Origin: an uncultured Christensenellaceae bacterium
GTDB lineage: Bacteria; Bacillota; Clostridia; Christensenellales; CAG-314
Direction: 5' to 3'
NCBI GenBank assembly: GCA_910586625.1
Contig: CAJUIZ010000008.1
Coordinates: forward strand, 2,618-66,617
DNA: 64,000 bases
Of this stretch, positions 39,887-40,621 are shown piece by piece. The notes under the pieces were generated by a model, which ran no database searches, was not told the origin of the DNA, and saw nothing but the letters and a program-made list of their open reading frames with translations. The position numbers were made by a program, and so were the translations under genes. Each line of letters opens with the position of its first letter. Position 1 is the stretch's first letter.

Positions 39887-40621
39887 TCAGTAGGCGCACT
39901 CCAAAAGCATTTTGTCGGCAAGCAACGCAATAAACTCGCCGTTAGTGGGTTTTTCGGACGAATTATAAACCTTTACACCGAATATACTGTTGATATTTTC
40001 GATTTTGCCCCTGTTCCACGCAACTTCGATAGCGTGACGTATAGCGCGCTCCACTTTGCTGGAAGTCGTATCGAATTTTTTGGCAATGGAAGGATATAAG
40101 CTTTTCGTAATGGCGTTTATAATAGGCGGATTATCTACGGCAAGCTTTATGCCTTCTCGCAAAAACTGATAACCCTTGATATGCGCGGGTATTCCTACGC
40201 TTACAAAAATATTGCTTATACGCTCGTCTAACGTTTTTTCGGATACGCTTTTTTTGCGCACCACTTTACCGCCCAATCTGTCGCCTTCGTATACGTTACG
40301 TATGCGCTGCTCTAACACCCCGTATTCCAACGGCTTAACCAAGTAATATTTCGCGCCAAGCTCTAACGCCTTTATTACAAATACTTCGCTTTTCAATTCC
40401 GAAGCCACTATGAACTTTACGTCTCTGTACTTCTCCAACAAAGCGAATCCGTCTTCGCCGCTCATAACAAGCTCGCTTATTACCACGTCCGGATCTGTCG
40501 TATCGAGATAACTTCTCGCGTCCTTTCCGTCCGAATCGAATATAACGTCAAATTCGTCGTTTTCGCTTAATCTTTCCTTTAAGCCTTGCTGTCCGATAAG
40601 CCCTATTTTAATCATTTCCAT
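39887..40621 (-). CDS. spo0A: Spo0A-like sporulation transcription factor with atypical receiver domain
   Basis: Effector-domain signature [16 protein letters not shown]...[31 protein letters not shown]...[14 protein letters not shown]. The N-terminal CheY-like domain is degenerate (see findings). The start is at 40621 or 40615. Confidence 0.85.
   Translation of the reverse strand: [244 protein letters not shown]

Follow-up and report, generated by a model that had tools for sequence, protein, structure and literature searches.

Endospore formation is taken to be triggered universally by phosphorylated Spo0A (Spo0A~P), and every known receiver phosphotransfer requires Mg2+ bound by a pair of acidic residues (DD). 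The two DD aspartates hold the catalytic Mg2+, and helix alpha1 of the receiver is where phosphodonors dock. Two engineered forms of Bacillus subtilis Spo0A, the Sad67 deletion and the isolated C-domain, are active without aspartate phosphorylation: the C-domain binds DNA and activates transcription once inhibition by the receiver is lifted. Gut Clostridia lack Spo0F and Spo0B, and what feeds their Spo0A is a long-standing question. Here we describe a spo0A-type gene in a 64-kb stretch of contig CAJUIZ010000008.1 from an uncultured Christensenellaceae bacterium (hereafter the window, meaning the whole stretch analysed, and the part of the genome that our gene-content findings cover). Its product keeps the domain architecture of canonical Spo0A together with a closely matching DNA-binding domain, and its receiver has lost the residues on which phosphorylation depends.

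Characterised pseudo-receiver regulators include ChxR, HP1043/HsrA, GlnR, RitR, BldM/WhiI and CmrT, and aspartate-less receivers (ALRs), in which Glu is the commonest replacement of the acceptor, arose independently within ordinary response-regulator families (PMC4395418, PMC12632262). Like regulators of the ChxR, HP1043 and GlnR type, the window protein is recognisable by the PF00072 receiver profile, has lost its catalytic residues and is an orphan with no histidine kinase gene adjacent; unlike any of the characterised pseudo-receiver regulators, it carries Spo0A_C as its output domain. The 2015 census of Maule et al. counted seven ALRs among 391 Response_reg~Spo0A_C proteins in its S6 Table, with no comment (PMC4395418), and beyond that count we found no paper describing or analysing an Asp-less Spo0A. 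Pseudo-receivers are known, as is the Spo0A family; what appears to be new is a natural, clade-wide pseudo-receiver with a Spo0A_C output. Sad67 and the isolated C-domain are laboratory mutants, whereas the window form is natural, occurs throughout a clade, is under selection and keeps the whole receiver fold.

The gene lies on the minus strand within an open reading frame spanning 39887..40654. Its likely start is the ATG at 40615 (MIKIGLIG...), which is preceded by a GGAGG 9 nt upstream and lies in the column at which all orthologues start; the start at 40621 assumed in an earlier sequence-only reading of this DNA is too near the ribosome-binding site. That reading had assigned a Spo0A-type effector domain, and the three effector-domain strings that it quoted are all present in the open reading frame. 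Pfam returned Spo0A_C (PF08769) at E=8.9e-40, covering positions 1-103 of the 104 in the profile (residues 135-237 when numbering begins at the 40621 start) and Response_reg (PF00072) at 47 bits against a gathering cutoff of 30.2, and the Spo0A equivalog model TIGR02875 (NCBIfam) scored 215.6 bits against a curated cutoff of 200. Among PDB sequences, phmmer gave matches to the Spo0A C-domain entries 1LQ1 and 1FC3 (1e-38) and, at 3e-8, to 1DZ3, a Spo0A receiver. An AlphaFold2 model built on 61 homologues had a mean predicted local distance difference test (pLDDT) score of 85, with about 90-95 in the receiver; in Foldseek superpositions its C-domain fitted 1LQ1 at a template modelling (TM) score of 0.93 (root-mean-square deviation 1.3 A, 56% identity) and its receiver fitted the phosphorylated Spo0A receiver 1QMP at TM 0.80-0.84. 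The Spo0A_C domain has invariant columns across the 61 homologues, and its recognition helix differs from that of canonical Spo0A at one residue in the phmmer alignment to PDB sequences and is otherwise identical. Judged by these matches, the protein is a genuine Spo0A, with the same receiver and Spo0A_C architecture as the canonical proteins of B. subtilis and Geobacillus stearothermophilus (1QMP, 1DZ3, 1FC3, 1LQ1); it departs from them in a DD pair replaced by Gly-Gln, an acceptor Asp replaced by Glu, two deletions and a position away from spoIVB and recN.

The phospho-acceptor column, Asp56 in B. subtilis Spo0A, is occupied by Glu48. In the phmmer alignment to 1DZ3, the stretch around Glu48 falls on PDILLLDIIMPHLDG of that structure; a custom profile hidden Markov model (HMM) built from 59 canonical Spo0A sequences pairs 'vvldlv' with 'VISELV' at maximal posterior probability; and both MAFFT alignments and superposition of the AlphaFold model on 1QMP likewise place Glu in this column. 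B. subtilis Spo0A served as the alignment ruler, and all key columns were re-checked against PDB sequences and the custom profile. The Asp-to-Glu replacement proposed by the sequence-only reading holds by each of these methods, the profile alignment placing Glu, and no Asp, at the acceptor. The DD pair (Asp10 and Asp11 in B. subtilis) corresponds to Gly8-Gln9, as both MAFFT and the position of the predicted beta1 strand (residues 2-7) indicate; this segment adjoins a 5-residue deletion and is unalignable by profiles, the canonical Spo0A profile aligning only from position 17 and the phmmer and HMM alignments both starting after DD. The deletion, at the beta1-alpha1 junction, leaves alpha1 six residues long (residues 12-17), and a second deletion of 3-6 residues relative to canonical Spo0A lies in the alpha3-beta4 loop. 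The sequence-only reading had claimed loss of the acidic pocket: the DD acids are indeed gone, but that reading had only partly described the combined change of lost acids and 5-residue deletion. The switch residues of canonical Spo0A are kept, with Ser72 at the Thr position, Tyr91 at the aromatic position and Lys94 in VKP; of these, the earlier reading had mentioned the Lys only.

The receiver thus has neither the DD nor the acceptor Asp of canonical Spo0A, and it has the features of an ALR: recognition by PF00072, no acceptor Asp and a degenerate metal-binding DD. Glu is unable to form an acyl phosphate, and a more decisive change than the Asp-to-Glu replacement is the loss of both metal-binding acids together with the beta1-alpha1 deletion. 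Because the Mg2+ ligands and the acceptor Asp are lost, established receiver chemistry implies that no acyl phosphate can form, and neither kinases nor a phosphorelay nor acetyl phosphate should be able to donate phosphate to the receiver.

The degenerate pocket extends well beyond the window. Over 100 homologues, with identities of 57-90% and nearly all from metagenome-assembled genomes (MAGs), came out of a search through 5.8 billion proteins, and a scan of GTDB species genomes with six exact peptide patterns yielded loci of which we took the best 80 (numbered from L001). Among these, L001, from an uncultured Clostridia bacterium (CANOTO01), encodes a protein 99% identical to that of the window, and the pocket is degenerate in all of L001-L021, which include Candidatus Fimimonas gallinarum and Ca. 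F. merdipullorum. The carriers are uncultured Christensenellales of family CAG-314 / Ca. Fimimonas; Ca. Fimimonas corresponds to GTDB CAG-1435 (family CAG-314, order Christensenellales), and the type genome of Ca. F. gallinarum is ~1.4 Mb with 46% GC (PMC8035907). NCBI taxonomy files Ca. Fimimonas under Myxococcaceae, whereas GTDB places it under Christensenellales, family CAG-314; this NCBI misfiling accounts for the 'Corallococcus sp.' labels on related MAG proteins.

In neighbour-joining trees, the only kind built, the pocket-less sequences form one clade nested among other Christensenellales Spo0A proteins (bootstrap 36/50); a broader clade (45/50) adds a sister 'GN' group, Subdoligranulum sp. 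CAG:314 (L027, acceptor Pro) and L074 (acceptor Gln). Residue counts over the 101 non-redundant members, delimited by the tree clade, are given in Table 1. An invariant M-x-G-E-D-G loop brings extra acidic residues near the site. By parsimony the acceptor switched between Asp and Glu at least seven times inside the clade. Glu and Asp codons are one third-position change apart, and since only Asp and Glu are seen across these switches, the pattern argues for selection on negative charge at the acceptor rather than on Asp as such. On this distribution, the apparently non-phosphorylatable receiver is a lineage trait and not a one-off.

Both domains also appear to be maintained. Mean identity within the clade is 71% for the receiver and 93% for the C-domain, and receiver and effector diverge in a ratio of 3.9, just as they do in canonical Christensenellales Spo0A. 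The ratio of non-synonymous to synonymous substitution rates (dN/dS, Nei-Gojobori) is ~0.14 in the receiver, compared with 0.04 in the C-domain, with dS near saturation for most pairs. Within the receiver, conservation peaks in the loops of the former active site and in alpha4-beta5. By these measures the receiver is maintained under purifying selection and is not decaying.

We then considered the promoter. Canonical spo0A has a Pv/Ps promoter pair, whereas the window gene has an extended -10, TGCTACAAT, and no -35 element was found by a -35/-10 scan, which therefore did not call the site. The extended -10 is kept as GTGnTAnAAT across 21 orthologous loci. Upstream lies a 0A box, TTCGACAA, with the same heptamer found upstream of canonical spo0A; the sequence-only reading had reported this box as TGTCGAA at 40703-40709, correctly except for coordinates that are one base off (40704-40710). 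TGTCGAA heptamers are at chance frequency in the window (12 observed versus 10.5 expected), and enrichment of 0A boxes was accordingly rejected; the spo0A-proximal box is meaningful because it is conserved in orthologous promoters. In 17/22 clade loci an exact TTCGACA in gene orientation precedes the start codon by 93-149 nt, and in an ungapped alignment anchored on the -10 hexamer, TTCGACAA starts exactly 60 nt upstream of that hexamer in nearly all clade loci, with unconserved sequence in between. In about half of the loci a weaker half-site of the CGACA type is found 13 nt upstream of the -10, and in L011 the interval is filled by five tandem CGACAAAAAA repeats, each spanning approximately one helical turn. 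A 0A box in the same orientation also lies within 200 bp upstream of 25/58 canonical Christensenellales spo0A genes, compared with 3.3% of background 200-bp windows, so 0A-box autoregulation would be older than the loss of the phosphorylation site and retained after it. That predicted autoregulation persisted through this loss argues, from sequence conservation, that the protein still binds 0A boxes.

The explanation that we hold to be probable is that the window gene is the lineage's orthologous Spo0A, carrying a pseudo-receiver, acting without phosphorylation and keeping its autoregulation. We favour a phosphorelay-independent Spo0A because receiver chemistry has been lost while the effector domain and the 0A box in its own promoter are conserved; that the protein is still functional is argued by the fold, the retained switch residues, the acidic acceptor apparently under selection and the near-unchanged DNA-binding domain. 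In the mechanism that we propose, Spo0A would bind TGTCGAA-type sites without phosphorylation, and its output would be set by an autoregulatory transcription loop through the 0A site that precedes, by 60 nt, the extended -10 of its own -35-less promoter. The conserved pseudo-receiver might also sense a non-phospho input, be it through a partner protein, a ligand or dimerisation, and the two genes that flank spo0A specifically in this clade, encoding a TetR-family regulator and a small membrane protein, are candidate sources of it.

Several points, in addition to the near-saturated dS, weigh against this explanation. The sequence-only reading had called Glu the classic activating substitution, which is true of several regulators, and Glu is a partial phosphomimic in many (PMC12632262), but for B. 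subtilis Spo0A itself the Asp-to-Glu change is listed as not conferring constitutive activity on its own (PMC4395418). It is plausible that Glu48, with Ser72 and Lys94, locks an 'on' state as a true phosphomimic, yet Glu48 need not activate. The acceptor Asp is kept by 21/101 clade members, and in 16% the first DD position is Glu; such members may be weakly phosphorylated. Autoregulation may be of either sign, activation or repression. The genome may hold a canonical spo0A or sporulation kinases elsewhere, or the organism may have no sporulation programme, and phosphorylation-independent activity is something that we infer from sequence and a structural model.

The small, host-associated genomes of these bacteria (PMC8035907) would also suit an account in which the gene is a relic in a lineage that lost sporulation, with a decaying receiver or a protein re-used for a non-sporulation regulon. 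Downstream of spo0A lies the dcw cluster (mraZ to ftsZ), which contains a single penicillin-binding protein (PBP) gene and a single FtsW/SpoVE-type gene, and ftsA-ftsZ is followed by the gene for asparaginyl-tRNA synthetase and not by spoIIGA-sigE-sigG (21365-25113, minus strand); each of these features fits a relic. The sporulation-associated genes in the window are yqfC, yqfD and a weak YtxC-like gene, all three below NCBIfam cutoffs, with no sigma-factor or kinase genes. Most Christensenellales MAGs of one study were predicted to be non-sporulating (PMC12536801), and acceptor loss is frequent among related clusters (see below). Simple decay, however, is hard to square with purifying selection on both domains, with an acceptor that is only Asp or Glu across 101 sequences, with the conserved promoter architecture, and with intact synteny on the other side of spo0A, where recO-era-ybeY-phoH lies upstream and the yqfC-yqfD pair (56152-57502, minus strand) sits directly upstream of phoH-(7TM-HD)-ybeY-era-recO in a B. 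subtilis-like arrangement, YqfD scoring 185 bits in Pfam. We regard the relic account as unlikely; its re-use variant is compatible with an orthologous, phosphorylation-independent Spo0A and is inseparable from it here.

The sequence-only reading had left a choice between a phosphorelay-independent regulator, which remains the best reading, and a divergent paralog, which the family assignment does not support. If the window copy were a minor paralog, a canonical, phosphorylatable spo0A elsewhere would run sporulation, and the window protein would be an accessory or antagonistic factor competing for 0A boxes. The gene does lie in a clade-specific neighbourhood with tetR and the membrane gene, and our genome scan used six exact peptide patterns and considered the best 80 loci only. 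Yet the protein exceeds the cutoff of the Spo0A equivalog model, the tree places its clade inside a set of single Spo0A genes from other Christensenellales (broader clade 45/50), and the gene keeps the ancestral 0A box in its own promoter. No genome had two spo0A loci among the best 80, including 0/21 clade genomes, even though canonical relatives at 50-60% identity were recovered; because the scan was pattern-based, this is a weak test. The Ca. F. gallinarum type genome, moreover, is only ~1.4 Mb (PMC8035907). A paralog thus seems improbable.

Pfam gave no HisKA or HATPase_c match among the ~55 window proteins, and a crude motif scan found no kinase H-box, N-box or G1 motifs in the window or in 21 clade loci. 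Persistence of covalent switching, through residual Asp/Glu chemistry in some members or at another residue (for example by a Ser/Thr kinase), is the least credible account: the Ser/Thr, Lys and aromatic switch residues, the acidic acceptor (Asp in 21/101) and the further acidic residues of the M-x-G-E-D-G loop would accommodate it, but Gln occupies the second DD position of 97/101 members, the loop is 5 residues shorter, receiver phosphotransfer needs Mg2+ held by the DD acids, Glu cannot form an acyl phosphate and no kinase gene is linked to the locus.

Loss of the acceptor is not confined to this clade. A phmmer search over 1.84 billion cluster representatives returned 825 clusters (50% identity) at E<=1e-30; among the best 150, 116 had an alignable receiver, and their acceptor was D in 92, E in 9, N and G in 5 each, S in 3, and Q and Y in 1 each, leaving 24/116 without Asp. 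A separate Asp-to-Glu clade that keeps DD (L032, P0101, P0102, P0106 and P0108; bootstrap 60/60) was split from the window's clade in 59/60 bootstraps, and the acceptor is Pro, Ser or Gln in the single lineages L027, L040 and L074. L044 is also among the natural Spo0A proteins without an acceptor Asp. Metagenomic proteins without any receiver carry Spo0A_C in tandem, with four domains in P0241 and P0242, three in P0244 and P0248, and two in P0260 and P0390 (Pfam Spo0A_C up to 398 bits, in four stretches), and look like covalently linked Spo0A DNA-binding multimers. Common to these variants and the window protein are a conserved Spo0A_C and phosphorylation control that is lost or absent, so phosphorylation control of Spo0A_C regulators appears to have been lost repeatedly. 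Four further proteins of ~241 aa (P0281, P0319, P0336 and P0366) have a normal Spo0A_C and a ~130-aa N-terminal region without a Response_reg match; P0336 and P0281 may be assembly chimeras.

A natural, clade-conserved and apparently selected Spo0A without phosphorylation chemistry would mean that the switch can be rewired, and provides a clean test case. More tentatively, the CAG-314 / Ca. Fimimonas lineage could launch a developmental programme from an always unphosphorylated Spo0A, through the autoregulatory loop and a non-phospho input by way of the pseudo-receiver, possibly from the TetR and membrane-protein neighbours. If so, this programme would include real endospore formation, provided that the rest of the machinery exists, and, together with the other Asp-less and receiver-less Spo0A_C forms, would indicate that phosphorylation is not universally required for Spo0A function. 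For MAG-based prediction of sporulation, the presence of spo0A does not imply a canonical phosphorelay, considering that 24/116 of the nearest representatives are without an acceptor Asp.

Table 1. Features of the spo0A locus in the window, and residue counts at key receiver positions over the clade.
Feature	Position	Strand	Basis or counts
spo0A-type gene, 242 aa + stop codon	39887..40615	minus	Open reading frame, Pfam, TIGR02875, ribosome-binding-site spacing, orthologue starts
Pseudo-receiver domain, residues 1-110	40286..40615	minus	(beta-alpha)5 fold kept, alpha1 shortened; AlphaFold, Foldseek, alignment
Gly8-Gln9 codons, position of the two metal-binding Asp (DD)	40589..40594	minus	MAFFT; predicted beta1 strand; clade counts
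GAG codon for Glu48, phospho-acceptor column	40472..40474	minus	phmmer against 1DZ3; canonical-Spo0A profile; clade counts
Basic, disordered interdomain linker, residues 111-128	40232..40285	minus	AlphaFold pLDDT <50 at residues 113-124
Spo0A_C DNA-binding and transcription-activation domain, residues 129-242, with recognition helix	39890..40231	minus	phmmer, Foldseek
Extended -10 element TGCTACAAT of spo0A, no recognisable -35	40645..40653	minus	Sequence; clade conservation
Weaker 0A-like half-site AACGACA	40664..40670	minus	13 nt upstream of -10; kept in only ~half of loci
Conserved 0A box TTCGACAA	40703..40710	minus	TGTCGAA on plus strand 40704-40710; conservation in clade and relatives
TetR-family regulator gene	39194..39781	minus	TetR_N 8e-14; neighbour of spo0A in clade only
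Sigma-A-type promoter of tetR, TTGCCA-17-TACAAT with TG	39821..39849	minus	Promoter scan; kept in orthologous loci
Two-helix membrane protein gene, 146 aa, acidic tail	40829..41269	minus	Conserved upstream neighbour of spo0A in clade
First DD position, 101 clade members			G63/E16/C10/S7/A3/D1/N1
Second DD position, 101 clade members			Q97/L2/E2
Acceptor, 101 clade members			E80/D21, no other residue
Thr position, 101 clade members			S82/T19
Lys position, 101 clade members			K95/R2/N2/Q2

The flanking genes noted in the sequence-only reading, a TetR gene and a membrane gene, were confirmed. tetR adjoins spo0A in 18/19 of loci L001-L019 and is not found beside canonical spo0A genes; the trio of tetR, spo0A and the membrane gene is kept through the clade, even where spo0A is inverted, and is missing from canonical relatives. 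The same reading was right that the gene lies outside the recN/spoIVB neighbourhood, but this is not specific, as canonical Christensenellales spo0A genes also lie elsewhere. spo0A is inverted in place in L010, L012, L014 and L019, with tetR divergent in the first three and downstream and convergent in L019. An invertible element at spo0A was rejected, as the window has no flanking inverted repeats. A scan found no terminator-like site between spo0A and tetR, and Pfam and NCBIfam gave no family match for the small membrane protein. RefZ was the top NCBIfam match of the TetR protein and was discarded as an identification: NF037937 scored 44.8 bits against a cutoff of 180, over the helix-turn-helix region only, much like the scores of many further TetR models.

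A second 'conserved 0A box' at 41463-41469 was rejected as a Spo0A site, since it lies inside an M-box riboswitch and is conserved as part of it; this Mg2+ riboswitch (RF00380, 41376-41537, plus strand, 93 bits) is upstream of mgtE (41636-43009). A 0A-type box upstream of mraZ (36303) was set aside as a chance match, since L001, a relative with 99% identity, already lacks it. Upstream of the 0A box of spo0A is another promoter-like site, TTGTCG-17-TACAAT (40773-40801, minus strand), which occurs only in the window and L001.

Just downstream of tetR, positions 38384-39025 (minus strand) encode a 213-aa protein with Cys-rich motifs at both ends, for which no Pfam, NCBIfam or PDB match was found; its ~1000 homologues in related MAGs are all annotated 'hypothetical', and between loci its identity is 83-100%, compared with 79-99% for Spo0A at those loci. 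Downstream of canonical Christensenellales spo0A in L032, L039, L044 and L058 is a gene for a zinc-ribbon protein of 180-220 aa starting CPRCELN...C.VCK. Elsewhere in the window, a CsoR/RicR-type copper repressor gene (57550-57807, minus strand, 60 bits) adjoins one for an HMA-domain heavy-metal P-type ATPase (57804-60434, minus strand), an ordinary copper-efflux pair. Positions 44199-44852 (minus strand) encode a collagen triple-helix repeat protein (Pfam Collagen 9.6e-27) that may be a surface or exosporium component resembling BclA; it is duplicated in L002.

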